From a virus (Duplodnaviria > Caudoviricetes): a stretch of 64,000 bases of DNA. The position numbers and the translations under genes were made by a program. The stretch is from IMG/VR virus record IMGVR_UViG_3300014208_000026, positions 96,001 to 160,000 of that record. One strand, written 5' to 3'. Below the pieces are notes generated by a model that saw only the letters and a list, made by a program, of their open reading frames with translations, searched no databases and had not been told where the DNA came from. This document shows, in pieces, positions 7,161 to 21,784 of the stretch (within the stretch, counting starts at the first letter, position 1; every line of letters begins with the position of its first letter).

Positions 7161-10100
7161 ATGGCTTTCCTGAAGTTCGCAAATGCACGAATCATCACGC
7201 CGGACCTTGGTGGTCAGGCGGGGTGGAAAAAAGTGCGTACCGCGGCTAAGAAAGCTGACGTGTCCCCCGACCTTTTGGAGCAGGCCAGCGGTATTCTCGG
7301 GAAGCCTTTCAATCCCGATGACTACCTGCTGACTCACTGCACCATCGTTTCGAGCGTCGACGTGGAGCCTGTTCCTGGGGCCAAGATCGGTAAGATCAAG
7401 GAGAACGGCTTTACTGTCAATCGTATCTACGGTGACTACAGGATCACTGAAGACACTTTGGAGCAGATCAACGCGAACAAGGATGCATGGGCCCGTGGTG
7501 TCATTCTGAAGTCCTACCAGACGTTCAGGGGTGGCCAGAATTTCTGTTTTGCTCCTGGCACTGAAGTTCTGATGGCTGACGGAACTTACCGTCCTATCGA
7601 GAAGGTAGTGGCAGGGGACGAAGTGATCACGCATACGGGTGAGGCTCATAAGGTCACTCAGACTTTTGTTAGGGATTTCGAAGGCCCGATTCAGGCTCTC
7701 TACGTAGACCGATTCAAGGATCCTCTTCTCGTTACGGGAAATCATCCGTTCAGAGCCATTTCTGTCACAGCTTCTCAGTTGACCTCTTACTCTGGAGCTA
7801 AGCTTTCTAGTCAGGTTCGCTATCGAAGAGATCAGATAGTAGACTCCCTTCGGGATGGAGAGGGTCATTTTGGTAAGGCGTTTCCGGCAGTCCGCGAGAT
7901 CAAAACTCTCCTGGCTAAAAGCGCTATGCTAGCCGGGGACATTGCAGAAGCGATGGGCCATAAGAGAACTTATTCTTCTGTCATCATTCAGAGAGTTCTA
8001 AAGCGGCACACAGACCAGTTTTTTTCCCGTCCTTTGCTTGTTTCAGAGTATCCGTCTTTACAGAAGGGGCGGTGGTGCAGTCGAGTGTGGGCTGTTAGAG
8101 AAGACGCCCCTGATTTGCCGGATACTGACGTGAAGGCAGACAAAGATTGGGTAGCTGCTGAGCATTTCAAAGCCGGGGATTTCATTCTCGGCCCAGAGCA
8201 AAAGTTAGGGCAGATATCCGAACCTGAGAAGGCCACTCTTCTTGGTTATTACCTTGCAGAAGGGTGCCGTCTTGATCCTCATAAGGATTATGGGGTGTGT
8301 TTGGTTTTCGGGGCACATGAGCGAAATCTCGTAGAGCATGCTGCGAAGCTGGCTGAAGGGTGTTTCCCGGGAACTACGGCTCATATTCAGAATCCTAAAA
8401 ATGGGGCTTTGAGAGTAGATTTGCGCGGTTCTGAGATTTGTAAGTGGATGGTTCGAAACGGCGGCATTTATTCTGAATCAAAGCGTCTCCATCCGGACGT
8501 TTTCTCTTGGGACAGAGAATCTCTTTTGAGAATGTTTGCCGCGTGGATGGCTGGAGACGGGGATCATCACAAAGGAACCTTACGTCTTCGTGGAGTTTCC
8601 GTGTCTCATGAGCTTGCACAGCAAATGCACAGAGTTGCTGAGTTGTGTGGGATAAAATCTTCTGTTGTTTTTACGCGCCAAAAAATTGGCGAGGTTTGTA
8701 GTCAAGTGACAATGGTTATTGGGGGTGAGCCTCGCGTTTTCAACGTGATTCCTCGGCACCACGTGTGGACTGTTTTGGTATCTAAAGACTCCACTCCTGA
8801 AGTTACTTGCCGGAATATTCGGTGGGGGGTTCCTCTACACGTTGTTGAAGATGTGCACAAACGTCAGGAGTTTGCTTGGTGGGGTGGTTGCAGGGTTCAT
8901 AGGGTAGATTCTAATGAGTCTATCCCCTATAAAGGTAAAGTGCATAATATAGAGGTTGAGGAAGATCATTCCTATGTAGTCGATTATGGTATTGCGGTAC
9001 ATAATTGTGAGCACATACAAATCACGGAACTTTCCAAGGGCCGCATCATCGATGCCGTAGCCCGTGACGTTGGGAATTCGATTTACGTGGATATCCTGAT
9101 TGCTACGGACAGGAAGCACACGGACCTCATTCGGGATATCAAGTCGGGTAAGATGGGCACCCTCTCAATGGGTTGTTTCCTCCCCGGGACTCAGGTGTCT
9201 CTGGCTGACGGTAGTCGTGTAGCAATCGAAAACGTGCAGGCTGGAGACAAGGTTCTGACGCATAAGGGCCGTGCTCGCGAAGTGCTGAACAAGCAGGTTC
9301 GTGAGGGCGTGTGGAACATCCGGCGTATTCAGGTAGCCGGGGTTTCGGCTGTGATCACTGCAACGGACAATCACCCCTTCTACGTGCTTCGTGACGAGTG
9401 GGAGTGGATTCGGGCCGACGAACTTCAGGCAGGAGATCTCCTGTGTGTTCCTGTGGGGGATCAGACCGCTTCTGTTGTTCTTTCTATTGAGTCTGGTACC
9501 TACGAAGGTCCTGTCCATAACATGGAAGTGGCGGAGGACAACTCCTATGTTGTGGAGGGAGTCGCTGTTCACAACTGCACGACCGATTTTACTATCTGCA
9601 CCAAGTGCGGGCACGTCGCTGTCGACGATACTGACCTCTGCAGCCACATTAAATACGAGAAGGGCAACACCTTCTATTACCCCGATGGGAAGAAAGGTAT
9701 TGTTGCAGAGTTATGTGGGCATTCTTCAATCGATCCGACCGGAGGCGTCTATTTCATCGAAGCCTCTTGGGTTGGTAAGCCCGCATTCCTTGGCGCTGTG
9801 CTCCGTAACATCATCGAGGCCAGGGAAGTGTCGCCCTCTACCCGTAAGAAGGCTATGGAGGTTCTCTCCTCCCTGCCCCCGCAGTGGACTACGAATGGCC
9901 GTAAGAAGGCCGCCAGCATGTACCTCAGTGCTTTCGACGACGGGATGGATGAAGGGACCGAAGAGGCTCCGGCTGAATCCGAAGGAGCCCCTGCAGAGTC
10001 CGAAGGAGCCGCGTCTCCCTGGTCCGATCTCGAAGACAAGATGGTCCAGAAGATTCTCCAGAACGTCGAGAAGAAGCTGTCCGACCAGCTAGGTCCGGAC

Positions 10101-10475
10101 GGTAAGTCTGTGCCTTCTGCTCAGTCTGAGACGGCCCCGAACAACAACATCATCAAGCAGGCTGTCAAGAAGACGGCGGCTCAGTTCTACAACAACACTC
10201 TCTCCGCCATGCTCCGTACCGCTTCTTCGGATGCGGATCTCATGGATCGTGTGGCTGCATTGAATACTGCGTTCGGGATTTCCATCCCCGTGCCTCTGTA
10301 TCGTGCGGCTTTGAAATTCAGCGGTAGGAATACCACGCTGAAGGGTTATGTCGCCTCGTGCGAACGTGCTTTAGGCAGAAAGGTCGAAGCCGGGGAGGCC
10401 AAGACTTTAGTGCGTTTGGGGAAACTGCTGGAGCAGTTCTCCAATAAAACGGCAGCGAAACAGCAATCACGGTAG
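7161..10475 (+). CDS. Prohead maturation protease precursor (1104 aa; about 483 aa after removal of two inteins)
   Basis: Spliced exteins give NF^CEH and LSMG^CTTDFTICTKCG...FIEASWVGKPAF, the His/Ser pattern of HK97-type prohead proteases. Position upstream of scaffold and MCP. Confidence 0.85.
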   Translation: MAFLKFANARIITPDLGGQAGWKKVRTAAKKADVSPDLLEQASGILGKPFNPDDYLLTHCTIVSSVDVEPVPGAKIGKIKENGFTVNRIYGDYRITEDTLEQINANKDAWARGVILKSYQTFRGGQNFCFAPGTEVLMADGTYRPIEKVVAGDEVITHTGEAHKVTQTFVRDFEGPIQALYVDRFKDPLLVTGNHPFRAISVTASQLTSYSGAKLSSQVRYRRDQIVDSLRDGEGHFGKAFPAVREIKTLLAKSAMLAGDIAEAMGHKRTYSSVIIQRVLKRHTDQFFSRPLLVSEYPSLQKGRWCSRVWAVREDAPDLPDTDVKADKDWVAAEHFKAGDFILGPEQKLGQISEPEKATLLGYYLAEGCRLDPHKDYGVCLVFGAHERNLVEHAAKLAEGCFPGTTAHIQNPKNGALRVDLRGSEICKWMVRNGGIYSESKRLHPDVFSWDRESLLRMFAAWMAGDGDHHKGTLRLRGVSVSHELAQQMHRVAELCGIKSSVVFTRQKIGEVCSQVTMVIGGEPRVFNVIPRHHVWTVLVSKDSTPEVTCRNIRWGVPLHVVEDVHKRQEFAWWGGCRVHRVDSNESIPYKGKVHNIEVEEDHSYVVDYGIAVHNCEHIQITELSKGRIIDAVARDVGNSIYVDILIATDRKHTDLIRDIKSGKMGTLSMGCFLPGTQVSLADGSRVAIENVQAGDKVLTHKGRAREVLNKQVREGVWNIRRIQVAGVSAVITATDNHPFYVLRDEWEWIRADELQAGDLLCVPVGDQTASVVLSIESGTYEGPVHNMEVAEDNSYVVEGVAVHNCTTDFTICTKCGHVAVDDTDLCSHIKYEKGNTFYYPDGKKGIVAELCGHSSIDPTGGVYFIEASWVGKPAFLGAVLRNIIEAREVSPSTRKKAMEVLSSLPPQWTTNGRKKAASMYLSAFDDGMDEGTEEAPAESEGAPAESEGAASPWSDLEDKMVQKILQNVEKKLSDQLGPDGKSVPSAQSETAPNNNIIKQAVKKTAAQFYNNTLSAMLRTASSDADLMDRVAALNTAFGISIPVPLYRAALKFSGRNTTLKGYVASCERALGRKVEAGEAKTLVRLGKLLEQFSNKTAAKQQSR
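7545..9005 (+). mobile_element. Intein with LAGLIDADG homing endonuclease (487 aa)
   Basis: Starts CFAPGTEVLMADG; block B VTGNHPF; LLGYYLAEG and AWMAGDG motifs; ends VHNIEVEEDHSYVVDYGIAVHN followed by C+1. Confidence 0.95.
9174..9575 (+). mobile_element. Mini-intein (134 aa, no endonuclease)
   Basis: Starts CFLPGTQVSLADG; block B ATDNHPF; ends VHNMEVAEDNSYVVEGVAVHN followed by C+1. Confidence 0.95.
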
Positions 10476-10490
10476 AAGGAGGAACGAGCA

Positions 10491-11870
10491 ATGAAACGAC
10501 AGCGTAGTACCTGGGTCAAGAAGGCTTCGGCCGCCCCGGCGGTCCCGTTTGAGTCCGGCGGTCACCCTGCTGAGCAGCCCGATCCGAACGAGCACGATTA
10601 CGAGAACGGGGACACCTCGTCTTGGAACGAAGATCCCAAGCCCGGCCCCTACACGCAGAGCGGTCACCCTGCGACCCCCGATGAGGGCATTACTCATCCG
10701 GCCGCCAAGAAGGCTCGCCTTACTCCGAAGCAGGCTGCTGTCATGCAGAAGCGTGCTGAGGTGAAGGCCGCCAAGTGCGTGAAGATGGCGACTGCTTTCC
10801 TCGGCGAAGACGCCGACGAAGGCGACGTTGAGGATCAGGCTCTCGCGTTCATGGATCTCGACGACGCCAAGGTTGAGGCTTCCCTGAATCGCCTGAGCGA
10901 GGATGTCCCTGAGGACGAGGAAGCGGACGACGACGAAGAGGCCATGCTCGCCGCCATGCTCGCCGAGGAAGAGGAGAAGGACGACGAGGCCGACGACGTC
11001 GAGGAAGAGCCTGAGCCCGAGACGGACAAGACCGCTTCGCTGAAGCGGCGTCTCGCCAAGGCGGAAGCTCAGCTTCGCAAGCTGGCCGAAGAGGATGAGC
11101 CTGAGGAAGAGGACGACCCCGAGGTTGCCTCCCTGAAGAAGCGTCTCGCCAAGGTTGAGGCTCTTTTGAAGAAGGCTACCCGTAAGGCCGCCGACGACGA
11201 GCCCGAAACCGAGGAAGAGACCGAGGACAAGACTGCCGGTCAGAACGAGCCCGACGCTTTCTATACCGACAAGGGTAAGGAAGCCGATGATGGCAACGAG
11301 GATCTCGACGACGAAGAGAAGGCCATGCTGGCCGAGATGACCGCTGAGGAAGACGACGGCGACGAGGATCTCGACGACGAAGAGAAGGCCATGCTCGCTG
11401 AGATGCTGGCTGAGGAAGAGACCGAAGAGAAGCCCGAGGAGACTGAGGCTGAGGAGCCCGAGGAAGCCGAAGGCAAAGAAGCCTGCGACGCTTGTGACGG
11501 TACCGGCGAAGACCTCGACGGGATCGATGACATCTTCATCGACGACGCCGATATGGTCCCCGAACTGGAAGAGCCGATTGTCCTTGACGGCGACCCCATG
11601 GGCATGCTGGCCGATGACGTCGAGTTCACCCCGGAAGACGAAGCCGATCTGGCTTCCCTGTACGCTTCTGACGAGACCGAGGAAGTTCCTGTCGAGAAGA
11701 CGGCCCGTGCCAAGACGGCTTCCCGTAAGGTTGCCCCGAAGCCCGTTCCGAAGAAGGTCAGCACTGGTGCCAAGAAGCTCGGTAGCGTCCGTACGGCGTC
11801 GACCGAAGCCAGCTCGCTTGAGAACATCTGGGAAAGCGCTCCGGACGTTTCGGACGTGTTCAACCAGTAG
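10491..11870 (+). CDS. Putative capsid scaffolding protein (459 aa, highly acidic)
   Basis: Between protease and capsid genes; Asp/Glu-rich; repeated coiled coil ASLK[RK]RLAK and EDLDDEEKAMLAEM; hydrophobic C-terminus LENIWESAPDVSDVFNQ. Confidence 0.7.
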   Translation: MKRQRSTWVKKASAAPAVPFESGGHPAEQPDPNEHDYENGDTSSWNEDPKPGPYTQSGHPATPDEGITHPAAKKARLTPKQAAVMQKRAEVKAAKCVKMATAFLGEDADEGDVEDQALAFMDLDDAKVEASLNRLSEDVPEDEEADDDEEAMLAAMLAEEEEKDDEADDVEEEPEPETDKTASLKRRLAKAEAQLRKLAEEDEPEEEDDPEVASLKKRLAKVEALLKKATRKAADDEPETEEETEDKTAGQNEPDAFYTDKGKEADDGNEDLDDEEKAMLAEMTAEEDDGDEDLDDEEKAMLAEMLAEEETEEKPEETEAEEPEEAEGKEACDACDGTGEDLDGIDDIFIDDADMVPELEEPIVLDGDPMGMLADDVEFTPEDEADLASLYASDETEEVPVEKTARAKTASRKVAPKPVPKKVSTGAKKLGSVRTASTEASSLENIWESAPDVSDVFNQ

Positions 11871-11972
11871 TCCTACGACTTTTCGAAATCGGGGCTGAAG
11901 CCTAGTAAGCCCCGAAGTTCGAAGAATCGACAGATGCAAATCAGATTTCGATAAATACCTTCAATTAGATGC

Positions 11973-11992
11973 CTATAAGACAGACGTATTAG
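11973..11992 (+). promoter_or_regulatory. Late-promoter variant CTAT-N12-TTAG upstream of the decoration/MCP genes
   Basis: One mismatch to the recurring motif. Confidence 0.5.
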
Positions 11993-12087
11993 TGGAGAGG
12001 ATGACCTGCTTGGGGTGGGTCACTGGGGAGGGTTGAAAGACCCAAACCACCTCGTACTTCGCTGGTGAACAATGTTCGGAGGAAATC

Positions 12088-12756
12088 ATGCCCCTGAATG
12101 GACAGCCAAGCGGAGGGTGGACTGAGTCGAGTTCGTCTCTTAGGCTTCTGCACGTCGGAGTCCGTAACTCCGTCGGCGAGCTGTGCGACGACGCTTTCAC
12201 GCAGACTAACCCCCCCAACGTGGCAACTGCTGCTGGTGTGAGTGCTCAAGCGGACACTTCGGTGTTTGGTGTCCTGTCCGGCTCGGTCGCGTTCGCGCGT
12301 CCCGACGTCGGATCCAACTTCATTGGTGGACCTGCTCCGATGACCGTCGATGGAACGATCAATCAGACCTTCGTCCGCCCCCTCGGCTGCTTCCTGAATC
12401 ACGCTGTCGGTTATGCGTGGGAAAACCAGCCGGGTCTTGCTTCGGGTAAGGGTCCCTACGTTTCGGCGTGCGGCACTTACGCGAACGCCCTGTTCGAGGA
12501 CAAGTGCATCGCGACGGCGGGTGCCGTCACGGTCGGCGACCCGCTGTACTACATCACGGGTGCCCAGCTTGTCGCTTCGCTGAACGGCTACCTGATGCCC
12601 GCCAACGGGCACACGGGTGGCGTCCTGATCGCCTATGACATTGATGGTCTGGCGTTCCAGGCGACGTTCGGTGCGGCTGCCACCACTGTAATCGGCGTTC
12701 TCAAGATGCCCGCGGATAGCGAGCAGAATGAGATCGTCTATGATCAGCGCATCTAG
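12088..12756 (+). CDS. Putative capsid decoration/cement protein (222 aa)
   Basis: GGAGG RBS; Gly/Ala/Val-rich beta-type sequence; immediately upstream of MCP; strong codon bias. Confidence 0.65.
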   Translation: MPLNGQPSGGWTESSSSLRLLHVGVRNSVGELCDDAFTQTNPPNVATAAGVSAQADTSVFGVLSGSVAFARPDVGSNFIGGPAPMTVDGTINQTFVRPLGCFLNHAVGYAWENQPGLASGKGPYVSACGTYANALFEDKCIATAGAVTVGDPLYYITGAQLVASLNGYLMPANGHTGGVLIAYDIDGLAFQATFGAAATTVIGVLKMPADSEQNEIVYDQRI

Positions 12757-12767
12757 GGAGGTATAAG

Positions 12768-13643
12768 ATGACTAACGTAAGTACCGCCCAGAAGCAAGAG
12801 ATCATCAGTCGCTACATCACCAGCCCCCAGGGCCGCGTCAAGCTGGCTGCCAGCATGACCCAGCCGCTTCGTACTCGGCGTGATTACACGTCGGTCGGCC
12901 GCAAGACTTTCCTGGTCGAGCAGCTTCCCGATGGCGCCTTGCCGCTGTACGATAAGGACCCCGACGTCACGGCGTTCGTGGTCGGCGAAGAAGGCGAGAA
13001 CATCCTGGCGGTCACGAAGCCTCGGCGCGTGATCTTCCCGCTGTTCGAGATCGCTTCGCTCCCCGAGATTCCTCTGACGCAGATCAAAGAACGTCGCTTC
13101 GATCTCATCGAGCGTGCTCAGGATCTGGCCCGTGCTCAGATCCAGGCCGCTGAGGATGAGCGCGTGTTCGCAATTCTGGACGCCATTGCCGTGGCGGGCT
13201 TTGATAGCCTTCCTGGCCAGATGAACCCTGACATCCCCGTCATTGCCCCCATCAGCCCGGCCGTCCTCGCGGATGCGTTCGCTCTGATCGAGGCTCATGA
13301 CCTTCGGGTTGCTCGTGTGTTCATGAATGCCCGCGATTACTCGGACCTGCGTAAGTGGGGCCGTGACATCCTGGACATCGAGTCCCAGGCTGCGCTGCTG
13401 AAGACTGGCCTGATGGCGACCCTCTGGGGCGCTCAGATCATCGTCAGCCGCCTTGTCCCCGTGGGCACCGTGTATGTCACTTGTGAAAGTGACATGTTTG
13501 GACGCATCCCCGTGCGTACGGAACTTACGGTTTTGAGTGCGGACGATCCCCGTGCGCGCACGATTGGGTTCTCCTGCTTCGAAAACCTGGGCATCGGGGC
13601 GTACAACCCCCGTGGCCTCACCCGTCTCACCGTAACCCGCTAG
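12768..13643 (+). CDS. Major capsid protein, HK97 fold (291 aa)
   Basis: GGAGG RBS; PLRTRRDY...GRK...PLFEIASLP...RRFDLIERAQ...AAEDERVF...LWGAQIIVS...ENLGIG pattern of large-phage MCPs; followed by a strong terminator. Confidence 0.9.
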   Translation: MTNVSTAQKQEIISRYITSPQGRVKLAASMTQPLRTRRDYTSVGRKTFLVEQLPDGALPLYDKDPDVTAFVVGEEGENILAVTKPRRVIFPLFEIASLPEIPLTQIKERRFDLIERAQDLARAQIQAAEDERVFAILDAIAVAGFDSLPGQMNPDIPVIAPISPAVLADAFALIEAHDLRVARVFMNARDYSDLRKWGRDILDIESQAALLKTGLMATLWGAQIIVSRLVPVGTVYVTCESDMFGRIPVRTELTVLSADDPRARTIGFSCFENLGIGAYNPRGLTRLTVTR

Positions 13644-13688
13644 TCGGCGTTATTGTTGGGGTTTTTGACCCCGACTGGTGAAACCAAG

Positions 13689-13721
13689 AAAGCCCGGTGG
13701 CTTCGGTCACCGGGCTTTTTT
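13689..13721 (+). terminator. Rho-independent terminator after MCP
   Basis: AAAGCCCGGTGGC-TTCG-GTCACCGGGCTTT stem-loop with T tract. Confidence 0.9.
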
Positions 13722-13974
13722 GTGTCTGAAATAGGGACTCGCTATCCGGGCCTGTTCTTCAAAATCCCCTCATAGCATTTTCCGGTAGATGTTTGTTTAG
13801 ATCCCGATCCGTGCGGGCAGGTTTTAAGCCAGAGCCTCTCAAGGGTCCGGTCTTATTTGTTATCGGATGTTGAACTTTTTTCTGTTGCCCTGCCCCGCTA
13901 TAGAGTATAGTTATAACGGAACAGGAAACCGTCGGTGCCAGTTCAGCCGAGCCCGACCAGGAAAAGGAGTTCAC

Positions 13975-16900
13975 ATGAAGTTGACCCCCGAAATTCTCAA
14001 GGACCTGTATCTGGTGCAGTTGAAAACGGAGACTGAAATTGCCGGTATGTTCGGAACTTCCCAAGTCCAAGTTGGGCGCCTTCGTAAGAAGTGGGGCATA
14101 CCGACTTTGGGTAAGACAGGACGCCTGGAAAAATTGCTGCCTCCAGTTCTAACTTCCGAACAGGAAGAGGTTCTAATAGGGTCTCTGTTAGGGGATGGTT
14201 GTCTTAAAGGTATTTCGGAAAAGACGGCTCTGTACACGGAGACTCACGGACCTTCCCAATACGCCTATCTCGATTGGAAAGCCGAAATATTAGGTCCTTT
14301 TGCTCTAAGTGTTTATCCGACGATGAAAAGAGTAGGGGATAAAGAGTTTCCAGGTAGAGGCTTTACTACGCATGCTAGCACTGTTCTCAGGCCCTATTAC
14401 GATATGTTCTATCCTGCTCCGTCCCGTAAAAAGGTTTTTCCGGTTGATCTCTCCAAGAGGTTGACCCCTCTGGCTCTGGCAGTTTGGTATATGGACGACG
14501 GAAGTCTGGCAGGCACACACACTGCACGAATAGCTTTCGGACTGGACCCTTTAAGTCTGGAAAGGGCTTTACAGGCGCTACGTGATTTAGGGTTCAATCC
14601 TGTAGCCTACGGTAAAAAGGGCAATCAGGCTATTTGGCTCACGGGGGATACTCATCTGTTTTTGGACTTGACCGGCAAATACGTCTCAGAGCACATGCCT
14701 CAAAAGCTACCCTGTTGGACGGAAAGGCAGAAAGGAGATTTGAATGCCGAGAAATTAACACCGGAGCTGGCGGCTGAATTGTATTCTGGAAACTCTACAG
14801 TTGAGGATATTGCTGAAAAGTTCGGTGTCGGTACAAGCACCGTGAAACGCCGTTTGCGGGATGCTGAAACTCCGATGAGACGGTCTGGCCCACGTGATGC
14901 AGAGCCGGGGGATACTGCCATGCAGCCCCTTAGAGTTAAACCGAGTTTTCAGGAATGCGGGGTGGTTTTACCATGCCCTGACTACAACGGCCCTATAGAC
15001 AAGAGCAATTATCAGTGGGCAAAGAAAGCCGGATTGACTCCAGATACTCTACGGGTGATATATGCTAAGTACGGTGATGAAGAGATAGCTGAGCTATTCG
15101 GGGTTTCAGGTGTAGCCGTTGGAGTTCAGCGTAAGAAATGGGGCATTGAAAGTATCAGTGCCAGACAAAGAAGAGACAAGGTGGAACGCAAGGGTTTGCC
15201 CTCGCTCGACAACCTCACGCCTGAAGGGTTGAAGGTTCTTTCCAAAACTATGGGGGACCAGAAGATCGCTGCTATGCACGGAGTACAAAAGCCTGCGGTT
15301 TCTCGACTGAGGGAGCAGTGGGATATAGCGGCAACGTCTAAGTCTGAACGGGCCACTTCTGAAACGATACTGACGGATGAACAGAAAGAAGCCTGTATTG
15401 GAACACTTCTAGGGGACGCTCATCTTACAGAAAGCGGTAGCTTGAGAGTTTCGCACAGCCACGATCAGATCGGGTATCTGAAAGCTTTACGCGCTATTCT
15501 GGTTCCTTACGCTAGACCGATTCATTATTCTGAGTCTAGTATGCCTAGTGGCCAAGTGTGTTTCACTTTCGGTTTCAAGACGGTTCAGCATATGTGGTTG
15601 AAAGAACTCCGTAACATCTTCTATCCAGAGCCGGAAAAGGTGAAAGTATTCCCAGAGAGTATTATCCGCACTTTAACACCCCTATCACTGGCATACTGGT
15701 ATTTCGATGACGGTCACTGGGGTGATGTTCTATATATAGCCTTGGGTCCCATCTCAGATTATGAAAAAGAGTACATTCCAGTTTGGCTGAAAGACCGTTT
15801 TGGCTTTGACTCCTACATAAAGGGGAAACCCAACTGTCGACTGCTGTTCATTCGTGGGGCTTCTCATGAGATTTTCTTCAATCTGATCCGAAACTACGCC
15901 ATTCCAGATATGCTGTACAAGTTCCCGCCGAAGTACCGTCCTGCGGGTATTCTTCCCATCCACCCCGTTAGGACAACGCCGCAAATCAAGATCCCTCCCG
16001 ATCTGCTGGAGGGTTGTGAGGACTGGCTCTCTAAGACCTCTGTACAGCAAGAACAGACAGTCGATGATCTGTGCGGTTTCTGGCGGAGCCAGGGTTTCCC
16101 CCACTGTGAAATCCGCCCCGAGGAGCTGATTACTCTTTTGGAAGTTACTCCGGATCAGATAATCCATGAAGGTGTGATTCGACCCCGACAAGTCGGGCAA
16201 TCCCTTTGTCATGCTTTCATGCCTCATATCTGGAAGGCCCGTTCCAGGAGCAGTGAGCAAAGTCCTTTCGACCTATTCTCTGATGACACTACGCTCAAGG
16301 GAGCTTTGCGGTATCTGTTGGAGAAAGGCAGTAAGCCAACGGCTGCGGGATTGCGCGGGGCTCTTCGTTACTGGAGGTACTCAGGAGTTTACAATTTCCG
16401 GCCCTCCGCAGCTAAGGCTTTGGTGGACACCTATTGCGTTCCTGGAGGCACAGTGTGGGATCCCTGCGCTGGTTACGGCGGGCGTCTCTTGGGTACTTTG
16501 CTGTCCAGGAACTCCCCGAAGTACATTGCTTGCGAACCACAGTCTGAGACCTTCTGCCGACTGCAAGAGTTGGCAGGCTGGTTAGAGAAGTATCTCCCTG
16601 ACATTTCTTCCCGAGTGCAGTTGAACCACGTTCCCGCTGAGGAGTTCAAGTTGCCCGAGTACGTCGACATGGTTTTCACTTCTCCGCCGTACTGGCAGCA
16701 GGAGGTTTACGGAGAGGAAGAGACCCAATCTGGGATTCGGTACAAGACCTATGAGGCGTGGTTAGAGGGCTTCTGGAAGCCCGTGCTTCGACAGGCGGTA
16801 GCAAAGCTGAAAGCTGGTGGCTGGTTGGTTTTGAACGTCGACACTTTCGTTGCCAACCACAAGACCTATGACCTGCCTGGGGACACGATCGCTATCTGCA

Positions 16901-17667
16901 AATCGTTCGGGTTCGACAGGGAGCCGGAGACGTTGCGTTATGCTATGAACGGGGACAATTACGAATCAGTATTGTGTTGGAAGAAAGCGGTGGCTGTGGT
17001 TGAGGATTCTGTTCCCGTTCCCATTCCGTCGGTTCCGAATCAAGTGATTGTTTCCCGTTGTGAAAACTGCGGGATTACGGTTCCTATTGGTGGGATCAAG
17101 GACGGTAAGTGCCCTGAGTGCCGTGTTCCAGGAGGGCACCGGACGTGCTGTAAGGGCTGTGGCGAAGTGTTCCAAGCCGTTCGAAAGGACCGAGAGTTCT
17201 GCGATGAAGCTTGTAGGGCTCGTTGGCGTCGCAGAGAATTCCGCAAAGTCCATCCAGCCAAGACCACCCGCACCTTCACATGCCAGTTCTGTGGCAAGAA
17301 GTGGGAGTCCTCGGAACTTGGATCGCCAAACAAGTGTACCGAGTGTAAGGCCGCCAAGGAACTCGCGAGCCGAACCAAGGTCTGCCAGTACCGTCATTGC
17401 GGCCAGACTTTCGTCGACACGTCGGAAAAGAACAGCATGAGTTACTGTCACGTGGAACACCGCCGCAGAGAGAAGCTTCTTCGTTCCGGAATGGCCCCTG
17501 ATCTGAGCTATTTCACGAAGCCGGATCCCGTGCTCGACACGGCTACTCCTGCAATGCCCGCAAGCACTGACAGCCCGACAAGTCAGCCCAGCGTGTCTGA
17601 CTTGTTTGGCATGCCTCCCCGCTCGGACCCTAAGATCCACAGTTCTGATTCCGACTACTCCATTTAG
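13975..17667 (+). CDS. Fusion: HTH repeats + two LAGLIDADG endonuclease domains + SAM-dependent amino-DNA methyltransferase + C-terminal CxxC zinc fingers (1230 aa)
   Basis: AAGGAG RBS at ATG 13975; LIGSLLGDG...LAVWYMDDG; CIGTLLGDA...LAYWYFDDG; NFRPSAAK; motif I WDPCAGYGG; motif IV FTSPPY; several CxxC pairs. Confidence 0.85.
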   Translation: MKLTPEILKDLYLVQLKTETEIAGMFGTSQVQVGRLRKKWGIPTLGKTGRLEKLLPPVLTSEQEEVLIGSLLGDGCLKGISEKTALYTETHGPSQYAYLDWKAEILGPFALSVYPTMKRVGDKEFPGRGFTTHASTVLRPYYDMFYPAPSRKKVFPVDLSKRLTPLALAVWYMDDGSLAGTHTARIAFGLDPLSLERALQALRDLGFNPVAYGKKGNQAIWLTGDTHLFLDLTGKYVSEHMPQKLPCWTERQKGDLNAEKLTPELAAELYSGNSTVEDIAEKFGVGTSTVKRRLRDAETPMRRSGPRDAEPGDTAMQPLRVKPSFQECGVVLPCPDYNGPIDKSNYQWAKKAGLTPDTLRVIYAKYGDEEIAELFGVSGVAVGVQRKKWGIESISARQRRDKVERKGLPSLDNLTPEGLKVLSKTMGDQKIAAMHGVQKPAVSRLREQWDIAATSKSERATSETILTDEQKEACIGTLLGDAHLTESGSLRVSHSHDQIGYLKALRAILVPYARPIHYSESSMPSGQVCFTFGFKTVQHMWLKELRNIFYPEPEKVKVFPESIIRTLTPLSLAYWYFDDGHWGDVLYIALGPISDYEKEYIPVWLKDRFGFDSYIKGKPNCRLLFIRGASHEIFFNLIRNYAIPDMLYKFPPKYRPAGILPIHPVRTTPQIKIPPDLLEGCEDWLSKTSVQQEQTVDDLCGFWRSQGFPHCEIRPEELITLLEVTPDQIIHEGVIRPRQVGQSLCHAFMPHIWKARSRSSEQSPFDLFSDDTTLKGALRYLLEKGSKPTAAGLRGALRYWRYSGVYNFRPSAAKALVDTYCVPGGTVWDPCAGYGGRLLGTLLSRNSPKYIACEPQSETFCRLQELAGWLEKYLPDISSRVQLNHVPAEEFKLPEYVDMVFTSPPYWQQEVYGEEETQSGIRYKTYEAWLEGFWKPVLRQAVAKLKAGGWLVLNVDTFVANHKTYDLPGDTIAICKSFGFDREPETLRYAMNGDNYESVLCWKKAVAVVEDSVPVPIPSVPNQVIVSRCENCGITVPIGGIKDGKCPECRVPGGHRTCCKGCGEVFQAVRKDREFCDEACRARWRRREFRKVHPAKTTRTFTCQFCGKKWESSELGSPNKCTECKAAKELASRTKVCQYRHCGQTFVDTSEKNSMSYCHVEHRRREKLLRSGMAPDLSYFTKPDPVLDTATPAMPASTDSPTSQPSVSDLFGMPPRSDPKIHSSDSDYSI

Positions 17668-17706
17668 GTTCCCTGGCCTCCTGGCACCTAACCTCCGGTT
17701 ATCCGC

Positions 17707-17726
17707 CTATCCTTTCCTCTCTGTAG
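17707..17726 (+). promoter_or_regulatory. Putative late promoter CTAT-N12-GTAG
   Basis: Exact match to the recurring motif. Confidence 0.65.
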
Positions 17727-17750
17727 GGCCACCTCCCGGGTACTTCGTAA

Positions 17751-18905
17751 ATGCTCCTGTCCGACCGAGTTGCTTCTCGCTGGTTATCGGAGATATCGAA
17801 GAGATCTAAAGTGTCTCTCCATGCCCTCTTCTCCCAGGCAGTGGAAACTTACGAAAAAGCCGGTAATCCCGAACCCCTGTTGGCTTTTCTGCCGGTGTTC
17901 AAGACCACTCTTGGCGTAACTGAGACCGCTCAGGAGATCGGGTATTCTCGTTCTATCGGGGCAGATTGGTACTACGCTCTCGGCCCGCAGAAGCGGAACA
18001 AGATTAAAGACGTTGTGCGGACTCTGTTTGACCTCGAACGGAACCTAGGGAGCACGTTCTATACGCATCCGATTCCTTCTACGCTCAAGGCTCTGCAAGG
18101 GCTGGTGCCTACGATGTTGTGGCTGGAAACTCAGGTTCAGGAACAGGACTCTGAAGTTCCTCACGGTCCTTTCGTGCTTGTCCAGATGCCTGGAGTTTCT
18201 CAGAAGGCTTGGGGCGGGGCCCTTGAAGCCCTGGACAAAGCCACCGAACTCATCCGTAAGAAGTTCCCGCAGCTTCTGTACGGTAAGGTGTTCGTCACTC
18301 CTAGCGTCAAGGGCGGTAAGGCGGGGACCGTGGCCATGTACATGCCCTCTACCGATATCATTTACCTGTCTTTGCGGGCTCAGAAGACTGTCGGGGACGT
18401 CCTAGCTTTGGTTCATGAGTTCGGGCACAGGTACGACTATCGGTTCTGGCGGGATAAGGATGCGAAGCAGGAGTTTTTCAGTCTGTCGTCTGACACCGTG
18501 TACGAGAAGATTCCGATAGACCCCGCTCTTAAGAAGAAGCTGGTTGAAGAGTTCCTGGTAGCTATGCGATCGTACCGCTCGGGTAAGAAGCCTGTCCATT
18601 GGTCTGATCTGCTTACGCAGTTCACTCAGGAGTCCAACAAGGATTCTAGGAGGCGGTATATTCTGCGGGACTTGTCACAGAAGGCTATCAAGGGAGGGAC
18701 CGCCGAAGAGAAGGCCCTACGGGACAAGTTCTTGGAGATCGGGCCTAACGAGATCGTGACGGACAAGATTCTTCGGGGACCGCTGGCCGTGACCCCCTAT
18801 GGTGCGACGGATTGGAAAGAGAACTTCTGTGAGGCGTTTGCCCATTTCTTGGTGGGTAAGCCTCTCCCTCCTGAGATTCAGTCTTTCATGGAACATCTGA
18901 AGTAA
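17751..18905 (+). CDS. Zinc-metallopeptidase-like protein (HEFGH, lethal-factor-like) with N-terminal DRVASRWL tag
   Basis: LVHEFGHRYD...VTPYG...KENFCEAFAHF; same motif set as the first domain of the 1932-aa protein. Confidence 0.7.
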   Translation: MLLSDRVASRWLSEISKRSKVSLHALFSQAVETYEKAGNPEPLLAFLPVFKTTLGVTETAQEIGYSRSIGADWYYALGPQKRNKIKDVVRTLFDLERNLGSTFYTHPIPSTLKALQGLVPTMLWLETQVQEQDSEVPHGPFVLVQMPGVSQKAWGGALEALDKATELIRKKFPQLLYGKVFVTPSVKGGKAGTVAMYMPSTDIIYLSLRAQKTVGDVLALVHEFGHRYDYRFWRDKDAKQEFFSLSSDTVYEKIPIDPALKKKLVEEFLVAMRSYRSGKKPVHWSDLLTQFTQESNKDSRRRYILRDLSQKAIKGGTAEEKALRDKFLEIGPNEIVTDKILRGPLAVTPYGATDWKENFCEAFAHFLVGKPLPPEIQSFMEHLK

Positions 18906-18947
18906 CCCGTCATTTCTTTTTTATCTCCCAAAAAGCACTCTCTCACC

Positions 18948-18957
18948 GGTACAGTAA
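18948..18957 (+). promoter_or_regulatory. GGTAYAGTAG-class promoter-like motif (variant GGTACAGTAA)
   Basis: One mismatch to a motif seen upstream of seven other genes. Confidence 0.45.
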
Positions 18958-18986
18958 GGCTACTCGCCGATTTTGGGTATACTTAT

Positions 18987-19328
18987 ATGAGCAGGTCGAA
19001 TAAAGTCCAGAACAGCCAAATTGATTGTGAAGTAGCGGTCCCTGACCCTCTGGTTATGGGGGTCTATGCCAATGCATTCCGCGTGGTCGGTGAAGTAGGG
19101 CACGATTGCCTGTTGGATTTTGCTGTCTACTCAGCCGACAAGCAACGAGCGGAGGTTGTGTCGAGGGTACGGGTTCACCGCAGTTTCCTGGCCGACTTGC
19201 ATCGTAGGCTGGGAACGGTGCTTTCGCCGGACGCTTCCGTTTTGCCTGGAGATAGCGATAGCGACTATCCAGACCAAGAAACGGCGGAGGGGATTTTGAT
19301 CATGCCCGGGAGCAGCAAGAAAAACTGA
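18987..19328 (+). CDS. DUF3467-like small protein
   Basis: GVYANAFRV...LLDFA...V.RV pattern recalled for DUF3467. Confidence 0.55.
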   Translation: MSRSNKVQNSQIDCEVAVPDPLVMGVYANAFRVVGEVGHDCLLDFAVYSADKQRAEVVSRVRVHRSFLADLHRRLGTVLSPDASVLPGDSDSDYPDQETAEGILIMPGSSKKN

Positions 19329-19350
19329 GGCTCGGTCGGGCGGTTTGGTG

Positions 19351-19360
19351 GGTACAGTAG
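19351..19360 (+). promoter_or_regulatory. GGTACAGTAG promoter-like motif
   Basis: Exact motif upstream of the 19390 gene. Confidence 0.5.
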
Positions 19361-19389
19361 AAAACGAGAACTTGGGAGGAAAGAAGATC

Positions 19390-21024
19390 ATGCCAGTAGC
19401 TATTCAGTTCGTGACCGGACAGTTCCAGGAGTTTCGGGTTGCCAAGGGGTTCCATTTTGGGCCTCTCGCTCGGGACATGGCCCTGGACGAGGTGTTTGAG
19501 TTCGACGGGCGGACTCTCAAGGTTGGCGGTGAGACGTGGCCTGCGGAGAAGCTGAAAGGCGCTATCCTGGCGGGTTGGATTGTGTTGTCCAGCGACGTGG
19601 ATTATGTGCCCCCCCGTCCGCAGCCTGCGGGTGTATCAGTCCGTCCGGCGGACAACAGTGTGAAGGGTAAGGCTCCCTCGGATATGACGACGGTGGGTCA
19701 TGAGGAGCGTGAGGTCGGGCTTCTGAAGGACTTTACGGAGAGAAGCAAAGCGGCACTGACGGGGGCTCAGCAGAAGGCCACGCGGATGGTTGCGGCCCAT
19801 GCCCGTGCGGGGGACACTGCTGAAGAGATCCTGGGCGGTGAGGTTGCTGTCTCGCCTAGGGGTACTTCTAAGTACGCGATGAGTTCGCAGGATGATGAGC
19901 GGCAGGTTCGGCGTTTGACTCCTTGCACCCCGCAGGGGGTTGCGAGGGCGGCGGCAGAAGCGGCCCAGGGGGGTGGCAGGGCTAGGACGGCTTCTCGGAG
20001 CAGCACTATGATTGAACCCCAGGAAGGGGTTCCGGTGCGTTCGGTGACTTCTTTGCGTTCCAAGCAGGACAGCACCCTGATTACCGGCACCTCTGACATT
20101 CAGCGGGGGATTCGGGAAGCCCACGATACGGCTGTGGCCTCTACGACGCAGACGGTTCGTCGAGAGCTTACTCCGCAGGAGTACGCCAAGGTGCTGGCGG
20201 CTCAGAAGGGGAGGGAGGCTGCTTTCAATGCTGCCAAGGCCTCGGGTATGACGGCGGAGCAGGCCAAGGAACTGTTGGCTCAGCACGCTCGGGTTGGGGA
20301 TGATCTGGCTGAGATCATCGATGAGCGCCCTGTTGCTACCGAGGCAAAGCCCGTGCTCGACGCTGCTTACTGGCAGGCCTTGATGAACATGGCCTTCACG
20401 AAGTGTGGCGGGGATCCCGACACTCTCCAGAAGGTCATGGGAATCATCATGCAGTGGCGGGAAGCCGAAAGTGCGGATCCCGACCTGGAGAAGGCGTGGG
20501 CGGCTATCGAGGATATCCTGAATCCTCCGGCGTTCGTGCCCGACGCGGTTTACTGGCAGGGTTTGATGAGCAAGGCGTTCCAGGAGTGTAGCGGGGATCC
20601 TGCCAAGCTTCAGAAAGCCATGGGGCTGATTATGCAGTGGCAGAAGGAAGGTTCGGCGGCTGATCCTGACGTCGGTATGGCGTGGGAGATTGTCGAAGTT
20701 GCCATTGCGGAACCGGATATCGAAGTGGCTCCGGCTTCCTCCCTGCCTCAGGGCGGGGACATTTCTGAAGAGCTTTACGAAGAGGGTGAGCCGGTCGACG
20801 AAGAAAACCATAGCGAGTGGGATACGAACCTCCAGTATGCTAAGCGCATCAAGCTGGCCTTGGAGAAGTTCGGCAATGACCAGAAGGCCCTCACGCACAT
20901 CATCTCCGTAGAGACTCGGGACGGCAACGGTTCCAAGAGTTCGGCGGCTGTGGTTGAAGCCCTCCGCAAGCGTCTTCAGGAGCTTCTGACTTCCGACGTG
21001 GTCATGACCCCCGCCGTTTCCTAG
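19390..21024 (+). CDS. Hypothetical protein (544 aa) with a duplicated ~50-aa helical repeat
   Basis: GGGAGG RBS; DAAYWQALMNMAF...QW...ADPD and DAVYWQGLMSKAF...QW...ADPD. Confidence 0.75.
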   Translation: MPVAIQFVTGQFQEFRVAKGFHFGPLARDMALDEVFEFDGRTLKVGGETWPAEKLKGAILAGWIVLSSDVDYVPPRPQPAGVSVRPADNSVKGKAPSDMTTVGHEEREVGLLKDFTERSKAALTGAQQKATRMVAAHARAGDTAEEILGGEVAVSPRGTSKYAMSSQDDERQVRRLTPCTPQGVARAAAEAAQGGGRARTASRSSTMIEPQEGVPVRSVTSLRSKQDSTLITGTSDIQRGIREAHDTAVASTTQTVRRELTPQEYAKVLAAQKGREAAFNAAKASGMTAEQAKELLAQHARVGDDLAEIIDERPVATEAKPVLDAAYWQALMNMAFTKCGGDPDTLQKVMGIIMQWREAESADPDLEKAWAAIEDILNPPAFVPDAVYWQGLMSKAFQECSGDPAKLQKAMGLIMQWQKEGSAADPDVGMAWEIVEVAIAEPDIEVAPASSLPQGGDISEELYEEGEPVDEENHSEWDTNLQYAKRIKLALEKFGNDQKALTHIISVETRDGNGSKSSAAVVEALRKRLQELLTSDVVMTPAVS

Positions 21025-21025
21025 T

Positions 21026-21045
21026 CTATAGCTTTCCTCTTGTAG
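21026..21045 (+). promoter_or_regulatory. Putative late promoter CTAT-N12-GTAG
   Basis: Exact match to the recurring motif. Confidence 0.65.
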
Positions 21046-21067
21046 GACCTACGAGAGGAAATTTCCA

Positions 21068-21463
21068 GTGAAGCCTGCCAATGCAAGTAGTCAAAGTGCC
21101 TGGGCTCTCCTGACAAACGGAGTGACTTCGGCCAGAGTTAGGACTCACCGTCTCCAGCAGCTTGTCAGTCGAGTGTTGAAGATGATCGAAGATTCGGAGG
21201 AGAAAGAGCATCTCTACGAAGTGGCGGGGGATATTATCATCGCCCTGCCCGAAGGTCTTACGGCGGTAGCTTCCGAGCTGGATCAGACTTCGTACGCTCT
21301 CTCCCTGTTGGGGCAGGAGTTCCTGAAGGATCGGCTCCCCCTGGCAGACAAGAAAGAGATTGAGGACGCGGTGGAGTCTGTTACCATGACTCCCCCAAAG
21401 CAGGATAGCCCTGCTAGCTCCGCTAAGCGGGTTGCCAGTCGATTCCTCAAAGGCCAGGAGTGA
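21068..21463 (+). CDS. Hypothetical helical protein with C-terminal KRVASRFL tag
   Basis: GAGGA RBS before a GTG start; follows a late-type promoter. Confidence 0.7.
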   Translation: MKPANASSQSAWALLTNGVTSARVRTHRLQQLVSRVLKMIEDSEEKEHLYEVAGDIIIALPEGLTAVASELDQTSYALSLLGQEFLKDRLPLADKKEIEDAVESVTMTPPKQDSPASSAKRVASRFLKGQE

Positions 21464-21469
21464 CTAGCG

Positions 21470-21784
21470 ATGACTGACCCCCACGGGCTCCAATTGGAAC
21501 AAGAGGGCAGGGCCCTTCTTCTGGAGGGAGATGAGGACCTTGTTCTCAGGTTGCGGATCCTCGAAGGGCACTTTGACGACGACGGCAAAGAAATGCGGGT
21601 GATCAAGGTTCTCCTGGTAGGCCCCTTGGAGGGTCCTCTGCACCACAAGCAGATTGCGGAAGAGTTAGTGAATGCGGCTCAAGATGTTTATCAGCGGCAC
21701 ATGGACGATTTCCATCCTACCGAGGGGTTTTCCCAGAAGCTTCTAACGGTGGCCGTTAAACAAGGGGCTGGTAAAAAGAAGTGA
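21470..21784 (+). CDS. Hypothetical protein (104 aa)
   Basis: Fills the operon between coupled genes; overlaps the next start. Confidence 0.6.
   Translation: MTDPHGLQLEQEGRALLLEGDEDLVLRLRILEGHFDDDGKEMRVIKVLLVGPLEGPLHHKQIAEELVNAAQDVYQRHMDDFHPTEGFSQKLLTVAVKQGAGKKK

Follow-up and report, generated by a model that had tools for sequence, protein, structure and literature searches.

The gene described here lies in a 64,000-nucleotide stretch of DNA (the window; positions 96,001 to 160,000 of IMG/VR record IMGVR_UViG_3300014208_000026, Caudoviricetes) from a huge groundwater phage, in which it is the first gene 3' of the major capsid gene. It encodes a single polypeptide, P0002, that combines two LAGLIDADG nuclease modules, helix-turn-helix (HTH) units, an amino-methyltransferase and zinc ribbons. 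Based on sequence comparisons and structure models, we propose that the gene is an active homing element carrying a methyltransferase, present here in a rare double-nuclease form, and we put the probability of this reading at about 0.6. Homing endonucleases, their hotspots and amino-methyltransferases are kinds already known; as far as our literature searches reach, a LAGLIDADG-methyltransferase fusion at one fixed address appears to be undescribed.

Both nuclease modules look active. Pfam LAGLIDADG_2 (PF03161) matches the protein twice (151.9 bits against a cut-off of 25), and each module contains two LAGLIDADG motifs closed by an acidic residue, LLGDG and YMDDG in module 1 and LLGDA and YFDDG in module 2, as an earlier note on this DNA had described. 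Module 2 resembles the chains of I-SceI (phmmer E 4e-20), and its model matches I-SceI and I-WcaI in Foldseek with template modelling (TM) scores of 0.73-0.75 at 23-30% identity; the model of residues 340-1190 has a predicted local distance difference test (pLDDT) score of 89 and a predicted TM score (pTM) of 0.74, with module 2 above pLDDT 90. The two modules share 33% identity with each other, the fold match being that of the module 2 model, and module 1 is 54% identical to a fusion protein from the related locus L029. Both aspartates are kept in 55 of the 56 aligned modules, which come from the window and its relatives and cover all three lineages at the site, and module 2 keeps both in all 37 family rows that carry it. 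The sole exception, placed on a very long branch, is module 1 of P0006 (LLGNG, LDRG), a protein of the uncultured phage LR745208.1; the branch of the window's own module 1 is somewhat long as well (0.78), yet this module has both aspartates. This pattern looks opposite to that of domesticated LAGLIDADG binders. WhiA-type proteins share the LAGLIDADG fold and an HTH domain, but WhiA is a vertically inherited regulator in which the catalytic acidic residues are absent, whereas the window gene keeps these residues in both modules and is patchily distributed.

The gene stands directly after the terminator of the capsid gene, as had been proposed: the upstream protein matches phrog_2522, major head protein (E 3e-50), and a hairpin followed by a T run lies between the two genes. 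A comparable hairpin could be seen by eye 50-110 bases past the capsid stop in nearly every relative, occupied or empty. In the window, 5.7 kb separate the capsid gene from the next conserved gene. Empty sites, which the earlier note had suggested looking for, do exist in relatives: in L021 (capsid gene 99-971, homologue from 1150) and L061 (2376-3248, homologue from 3415) the genome passes from the capsid gene straight to the homologue of the gene that begins at window 19345.

Occupancy was counted in 68 informative relatives selected by their capsid gene, the absence of LAGLIDADG within 7 kb downstream being confirmed with a hidden Markov model of the module. No LAGLIDADG gene is present at 35 of the 68 loci, 24 carry a nuclease-only gene (300-330 amino acids (aa), or a 383-aa form) and nine carry methyltransferase forms, namely seven fusions of the usual "core" form, which by sequence has one nuclease module, one nuclease-HTH_23-methyltransferase fusion of ~650 aa and one other arrangement of the methyltransferase. 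Every LAGLIDADG copy whose neighbours were checked, fused or free-standing, lies directly past the capsid terminator in one huge-phage clade; its distance from the capsid stop is 60-250 bases at most occupied loci and about 500-670 bases in one subclade. On a tree of two flanking proteins (70 rows), the presence of LAGLIDADG needs at least 13 changes, and the core fusion needs nine changes for its ten rows, which is no improvement on shuffled labels. Different occupants are found in several sister pairs that have good support on this tree, and blastn homology between such sisters stops 3 to about 110 bases past the capsid stop. What is seen is presence and absence at a fixed site among close relatives, as in a mobile homing gene; the pattern matches the signature expected of free-standing homing genes, and the patchy occupancy and the breaks at the capsid stop bear out the homing behaviour suggested in the earlier note. 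Moreover, fusions of both lineages that were found through the methyltransferase alone also lie directly 3' of the capsid gene, whereas the methyltransferase unit fused to HTH or ROS/MucR modules is found elsewhere in the genome; the address therefore follows the nuclease and not the methyltransferase.

This last point bears on a different explanation, in which the LAGLIDADG modules would serve for aiming: their saddles, the HTH units and the zinc ribbons would direct the methyltransferase to a single long site or a small number of such sites, where methylation could, for instance, act as a regulatory or protective signal close to the capsid gene. Such a role would be in keeping with the occurrence elsewhere of the helical-domain and methyltransferase unit fused to HTH_23/28/29, ROS/MucR or treble-clef zinc fingers, with module 1 of P0006, which stays in frame after losing both catalytic residues, and with the compactness of the core model (pTM 0.74). 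However, the aspartates persist across modules that are 25-55% identical, which is not the case in domesticated LAGLIDADG proteins; the site is also occupied by nuclease-only genes, the genome position tracks the LAGLIDADG module, and stand-alone enzymes of 310-360 aa indicate that the methyltransferase unit is complete without additions. We consider a methyltransferase aimed by domesticated LAGLIDADG domains, which the earlier note had raised, to be unlikely.

A variable island may also be filled without homing. An ordinary anti-restriction methyltransferase could have acquired decaying nuclease passengers by accidental fusion, in a hypervariable island shuffled at repeated regulatory elements. 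Unrelated orphan genes are also present in the island, some related phages have several paralogous methyltransferases, and one relative, L083, has four or five terminator-like copies of ~125 bases between its cassettes. Against such a history, the nuclease motifs are not decaying, the LAGLIDADG genes keep their characteristic distances from the capsid stop, the fusions persist in more than 100 clusters, and no repeated intergenic element was found in the window beyond chance 11-13-mers. We regard it as very unlikely.

The double form itself appears to be composite. On the module tree three lineages are found at the site: a core lineage (100% support), one of the ~650-aa fusions and one of nuclease-only genes. 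Module 2 falls in the first of these and module 1 in the second. The stretch from residue 4 to 307 aligns colinearly, at 54% identity, with the first 315 residues of the L029 fusion, both ending in RRSGPR, and resemblance to the core family (P0007) sets in at residue 340; on these alignments, the gene joins the front of one fusion lineage to the whole gene of the other. The most likely origin of such a gene is a tandem pair of genes at the hotspot, and the simplest history would be two tandem fusion genes followed by an in-frame deletion that removed the methyltransferase of the first. L031 and L066 offer a precedent, with two or three LAGLIDADG genes arrayed in tandem at the site. The module tree groups the second modules of the window and LR745208.1 as sisters (86% support) and does not resolve their first modules. 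A separate transfer of the double gene was also considered and is not supported: an approximately unbiased (AU) test on the flanks of the two did not reject their sisterhood (p = 0.112). Post-capsid tandem genes of different lineages number three in L031 (8006-11120) and two in L066, L069 and L072 (7973-10911); the arrangement looks as if competing homing genes had accumulated at a single site.

Codon composition is likewise mosaic. The G+C content at third codon positions (GC3) is 0.47 in module 1, 0.49 in the two HTH repeats and 0.48 in module 2, against 0.55 in the helical domain, 0.67 in the methyltransferase and 0.60 in the zinc ribbons; in the neighbouring genes examined it is mostly 0.60-0.74 (range 0.50-0.74). 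The best single change point falls at codon 633 (0.471 to the left, 0.621 to the right; log-likelihood ratio 14.1), where the nuclease adjoins the helical domain; L010 and L011 diverge at this same border after 4304 bases of 100% identity. Since the gap between nuclease and methyltransferase is at most 0.07 in ten related fusion genes, where both parts follow the host genome, the split is specific to the window and is not a property of the domains. In codon composition, both nuclease modules look foreign and the half with the methyltransferase looks native to the genome; the 1.9 kb at the 5' end, which adjoin the presumed cut site, were therefore probably brought in later than the 3' half, through a partial conversion tract. 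In the comparison of L010 and L014 with L011, the break lies at L011 4304 and L010 6676: L011 has the full fusion, and L010 has a 383-aa nuclease-only gene and an unrelated open reading frame (ORF) of 620 aa on the minus strand.

The methyltransferase is predicted to act on an exocyclic amino group. Motif I precedes motif IV, as had been noted (DPCAGYGG at residues 829-836, TSPPY at 902-906), and TSPPY conforms to the S-P-P-Y/F catalytic loop of N4-cytosine methyltransferases. In 67 sequences the Ser, second Pro and Tyr of SPPY are invariant and the first Pro is nearly so, and the S-adenosylmethionine (SAM) loop D-P…G-x-G-G-R and the N-F-R-P segment are invariant or nearly so. We do not assign the protein to Pfam N6_N4_Mtase (PF01555), whose match at residues 897-962 scores 25.4 bits, just below the cut-off of 26.7, and covers profile positions 1-60 only, with motif I ahead of motif IV. 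Nevertheless, the enzyme shares with the beta class of N6/N4 methyltransferases (PF01555; TTHA0409, 2zie; 8s9m/8s9n) the S/D-PPY loop and the F-x-P…D-P-x-x-G-x-G-G SAM-binding segment, the difference being that the segment that is C-terminal there comes first in the window gene. Given that the family profile aligns first to the motif-I segment at the C-terminal side of 8s9m and next to the SPPY segment at the N-terminal side of 8s9n and 2zie, of which 8s9m and 8s9n are solved N4-cytosine methyltransferase chains, the order is that of a circular permutation of the beta class. An invariant Ser in an SPPY-type motif favours N4-methylcytosine (m4C). The sequence relatives and the many DNA-binding fusion partners suggest DNA as the substrate, and the enzyme is probably a DNA m4C methyltransferase; this specificity, like a restriction-modification-like or self-protecting role, is what we infer.

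By fold, the nearest neighbours are the tRNA N2-methylguanosine (m2G) enzymes TrmN, Trm11 and Trm14 (Z 17.0-17.6, root-mean-square deviation 2.3-2.8 over 172-180 residues), which have the same motif order and a D-PPY loop. Foldseek and VIA-align searches with the methyltransferase model returned generic Rossmann methyltransferases with the tRNA m2G enzymes on top, a result that does not distinguish DNA from RNA as substrate, and these searches gave no specific match for the helical domain. The helical domain and the methyltransferase are modelled as one compact unit (pLDDT 94, pTM 0.92), and stand-alone proteins that correspond to residues 690-1010, 310-360 aa long, occur in many phages and metagenomes. 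Depositors label some of these as DNA or N4-cytosine methylases, and some have weak Pfam matches to N6_Mtase and Eco57I. The zinc fingers that had been reported are four units of Cys pairs between residues 1029 and 1162 (1029/1032 with 1046/1049; 1059/1062 with 1076/1080; 1103/1106 with 1121/1124; 1137/1142 with 1158/His). Across 32 family members eight of their Cys are invariant and three nearly so, and the ribbons are modelled at pLDDT 75-94. Other arrangements of the same unit were also seen. P0003/P0210 (1560 aa) is a core-type fusion with a second, ordinary PF01555 domain at its C-terminus (66.6 bits). A post-capsid ORF in L022 (2118-4156), cut by the contig end, has an N-terminal zinc-ribbon unit followed by ~380 uncharacterised residues, the helical domain and the methyltransferase, without LAGLIDADG. 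G002, the record of L038, is a 290-kb phage without a post-capsid LAGLIDADG gene that has three paralogous genes of ~410 aa for the methyltransferase unit elsewhere in its genome.

Based on these observations, we propose the following model. A single-chain LAGLIDADG lineage of the I-SceI type, with its own HTH units, would have specialised on the site 3' of the capsid terminator in this huge-phage clade. In a mixed infection, the nuclease would cut the matching site of a relative, whether empty or otherwise occupied, and recombinational repair would then copy the gene into the cut relative. In two of the three nuclease lineages at the site, a stable fusion links the nuclease to an amino-methyltransferase whose SPPY motif is invariant, and the window gene is a rare in-frame join of these two fusion lineages. 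The conversion tract that probably brought in its 5' part would have stopped where the nuclease meets the methyltransferase. Phage DNA is the most likely substrate of the methyltransferase. Such methylation would shield the carrier from its own or rival nucleases at the site, or from host restriction; this is the weakest step of the model.

Three roles may be envisaged for the methyltransferase, namely a shield against the element's own or rival nucleases, protection against host restriction, and a restriction-modification-like exclusion of relatives. That the fusion is stable in two lineages and keeps both active sites speaks for a functional link between the two activities. If exclusion were the primary function, the protein would be a single-chain weapon with the logic of Type IIG enzymes, built of unrelated parts and directed at a long site: the nuclease would cut that site, unmethylated, in incoming or co-infecting relatives, and the tethered methyltransferase would spare the carrier. 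In favour of such a weapon, both active sites are conserved over roughly 50% sequence divergence, and the 3' end of the capsid gene is highly conserved, so that escape by target mutation may be costly. Target methylation inhibits LAGLIDADG meganucleases, according to PMC3827243 (citing Valton 2012), and PMC11620839 describes a homing endonuclease that serves competition between co-infecting jumbo phages. However, that the methyltransferase target lies within the nuclease site is an assumption, the same site has nuclease-only occupants, the insertion itself may split the target and make protection unnecessary, and L010 has lost the methyltransferase part while its nuclease part is identical to that of L011. 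We hold this to be doubtful as the primary function. A related possibility, to be entertained no more than tentatively, is a self-immune, long-site unit of the restriction-modification kind, in which the methyltransferase would mark the nuclease's own target and unmethylated relatives would be cut and converted, the double form being bispecific for two capsid-downstream alleles.

Several points weigh against the homing element with a protective methyltransferase that we favour. The patchiness could also reflect gain and loss in a hypervariable island, and the repeats of L083 point to another shuffling mechanism. The fusions of the relatives have the GC3 of their host genome and have therefore often been resident for as long as it takes to adopt its composition; over such a period, transfers are infrequent. 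Since nuclease-only genes get by at the same site, homing there does not require self-protection, and the L010 variant, having lost the methyltransferase part, likewise speaks against a need for it. Two complete related genomes are without such a methyltransferase, which is therefore accessory. As the nearest solved folds are tRNA m2G enzymes (Z 17), its substrate may be other than DNA. Finally, no RNA run is listed among the sequencing runs that hold the gene sequence.

The single-nuclease architecture is, by sequence, common in metagenomes and the double form rare. End-to-end alignments with residues 340-1180 were obtained for about 35 metagenomic proteins, which are 830-910 aa long and 45-52% identical to this part. 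A profile search of 1.84 billion cluster representatives returned 1040 proteins at E<=1e-30; going by the length and matched range given for each, more than 100 of the best 150 are HTH-LAGLIDADG-methyltransferase proteins in a single stretch (620-950 aa), and the only double-nuclease forms of ~1230 aa are P0002 and P0006 (1229 aa, on the 485-kb genome LR745208.1). No isolated phage of the INPHARED set has the nuclease-methyltransferase architecture. The earlier note had allowed that the architecture might prove common and already characterised; common it is, but we found no published account of a natural LAGLIDADG-methyltransferase fusion in literature searches whose coverage of subscription journals was poor.

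The window gene resembles several known systems and differs from each. Like I-SceI and I-WcaI, it has two LAGLIDADG helices about 100 residues apart in one chain, each ending in an acidic residue. In contrast to I-SceI, which is encoded in a group I intron, is about 235 aa long and has no extra domains, the window gene is free-standing and adds HTH units, a methyltransferase and zinc ribbons, with two nuclease modules per chain. With the seg and mob genes of T4 and I-TevI-like enzymes it shares an intergenic position beside a conserved gene, a patchy distribution and added HTH or zinc-finger DNA-binding modules. Those enzymes are GIY-YIG or HNH nucleases for which cleavage and co-conversion have been demonstrated, whereas the window gene is of the LAGLIDADG type and here we infer both from sequence; to our knowledge, none of them is fused to a methyltransferase. 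Type IIG/IIL enzymes such as MmeI, BpuSI and Eco57I likewise join a nuclease and an amino-methyltransferase in one polypeptide, with motif I before motif IV. Their nuclease is of the PD-(D/E)xK type and their sites are short, whereas the window gene has a LAGLIDADG nuclease and an expected long site, and scans with Pfam, NCBIfam and PHROG found no PD-(D/E)xK domain, which sets it apart from this class. We know of no natural LAGLIDADG enzyme that is coupled to a methyltransferase. The homing nuclease of the jumbo phage PhiPA3 also acts on a co-infecting relative; as described in PMC11620839, it is intron-encoded, without a methyltransferase, and its function was shown experimentally.

Homing endonucleases and methyltransferases are the two halves of restriction-modification logic. 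With the coupling conserved in more than 100 protein clusters, and at one genomic address in the loci checked, these genes would form a clean natural system in which to ask whether methylation can serve as the self-immunity of a homing element, how selfish genes compete for one hotspot and how they fuse. The mosaic codon composition of the window gene would represent a dated snapshot of a partial conversion event. As tools, moreover, the enzymes would provide new nucleases for long sites and, possibly, site-directed methyltransferases.

The gene is one open frame from 13867 to the stop at 17665-17667 on the + strand. The start is likely the ATG at 13975, 7 bases past GGAAAAGGAG, which resembles a ribosome-binding site, giving 1230 residues. 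As the earlier note had it, the polypeptide is uninterrupted and without intein features; an intein was considered and rejected, as there are no Hint blocks, the 1230-aa protein has no Pfam match to Hint or intein families at E<=1, and the flanking parts are independent domains also found as separate proteins. Two or three adjacent genes could in principle have been joined by mis-assembly or a missed stop, given that the source is a metagenome assembly and that the joint between the two halves has no homologue. However, a Logan contig of 6114 bases from a groundwater run, which may be the source sample, is identical to the window across 13741-18000 and spans the entire gene without differences. 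A second study yielded fragments that agree with most of the gene base for base, leaving 14954-15000 (inside the joint) and 17137-17655 uncovered, and LR745208.1 shows the same double architecture in a single frame of 1229 codons. A mis-join is therefore unlikely, and we give an artefact almost no credence.

The domain map (Table 1) was built from alignments and two structure models, and all motifs quoted in the earlier note were found at the positions checked in the translation. The HTH motifs EIAGMFG, DIAEKFG, EIAELFG and KIAAMHG lie at residues 21-27, 278-284, 370-376 and 430-436, the HTH_23 match of Pfam covers residues 273-296, and that unit ends at RRSGPR, the limit of the part common to the ~650-aa lineage. 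The two HTH repeats are modelled as helical bundles at pLDDT of about 85-90. An NCBIfam scan of the gene gave weak HTH noise alone, a promoter scan found none on the + strand upstream of the gene, and megablast of window 10000-22000 against phage records gave no match.

Table 1. Features of the window gene and its surroundings, with repeated elements and paralogues from two relatives (window coordinates unless a locus or record is named).
Feature	Position	Strand	Residues	Basis or remark
Major capsid protein gene, left anchor of the insertion site	12768..13643	+	291 aa	phrog_2522 major head protein
Capsid-gene intrinsic terminator, G+C-rich hairpin then T run	13689..13722	+		direct reading and hairpin scan
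Whole gene, P0002	13975..17667	+	1-1230	1230 codons and stop; GGAAAAGGAG upstream, like a ribosome-binding site
HTH unit 1, EIAGMFG	13975..14109	+	1-45	aligns with the HTH preceding module 2 and with the N-terminus of the L029 fusion
LAGLIDADG module 1	14110..14724	+	46-250	Pfam PF03161; ~650-aa nuclease-methylase fusion lineage
Module 1 motif LLGDG	14185-14199	+	71-75	
Module 1 motif YMDDG	14488-14502	+	172-176	
HTH_23 unit, DIAEKFG	14725..14895	+	251-307	Pfam HTH_23, 33.3 bits
Joint, 32 residues	14896..14991	+	308-339	without counterpart in either parent lineage
Two HTH repeats, EIAELFG and KIAAMHG	14992..15339	+	340-455	core-family N-terminus; aligned with 858-aa P0007
LAGLIDADG module 2, I-SceI-like	15340..15939	+	456-655	phmmer, Foldseek
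Module 2 motif LLGDA	15406-15420	+	478-482	
Module 2 motif YFDDG	15700-15714	+	576-580	
Helical domain	15940..16374	+	656-800	always accompanies the methyltransferase core, stand-alone enzymes included
Rossmann-fold amino-methyltransferase	16375..16989	+	801-1005	Pfam, profile matches, fold neighbours
Methyltransferase motif X-I, NFRPSAAK…DPCAGYGG	16393-16482	+		
Methyltransferase motif IV, TSPPY	16678-16692	+		
Four zinc-ribbon-like units	16990..17514	+	1006-1180	Cys pairs; weak zf-CGNR match
Pro/Ser/Thr-rich tail, unconserved	17515..17664	+	1181-1230	no alignment past residue 1180
Two further variable-island genes, orphan	17751..19328	+	384 aa (17751-18905) and 113 aa (18987-19328)	
First conserved right-hand gene	19345..21024	+		homologue directly follows the capsid gene in L021 and L061
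L083 terminator-like element copies	L083: 9461-9586, 10545-10649, 11670-11797, 13956-14084			
G002 methyltransferase-unit paralogues	G002: 218281-218763, 273777-274235, 277420-277890			

Two further genes stand in the island between the window gene and the conserved right-hand gene. Neither has a Pfam match; in tblastn searches of 84 related loci the 384-aa gene has no homologue and the 113-aa gene has one in L005 only. The 384-aa gene has a weak PHROG peptidase match. In L083, the element of ~125 bases that recurs between successive downstream genes resembles the capsid terminator and hints at cassette shuffling via regulatory repeats. Among the best 80 of 563 IMG/VR loci, the capsid proteins share 85-88% identity, whereas for the proteins on either side the figure is 30-60%; this difference may reflect strong structural constraint on the capsid or, possibly, repeated homogenisation by the conversion tracts of the homing site.

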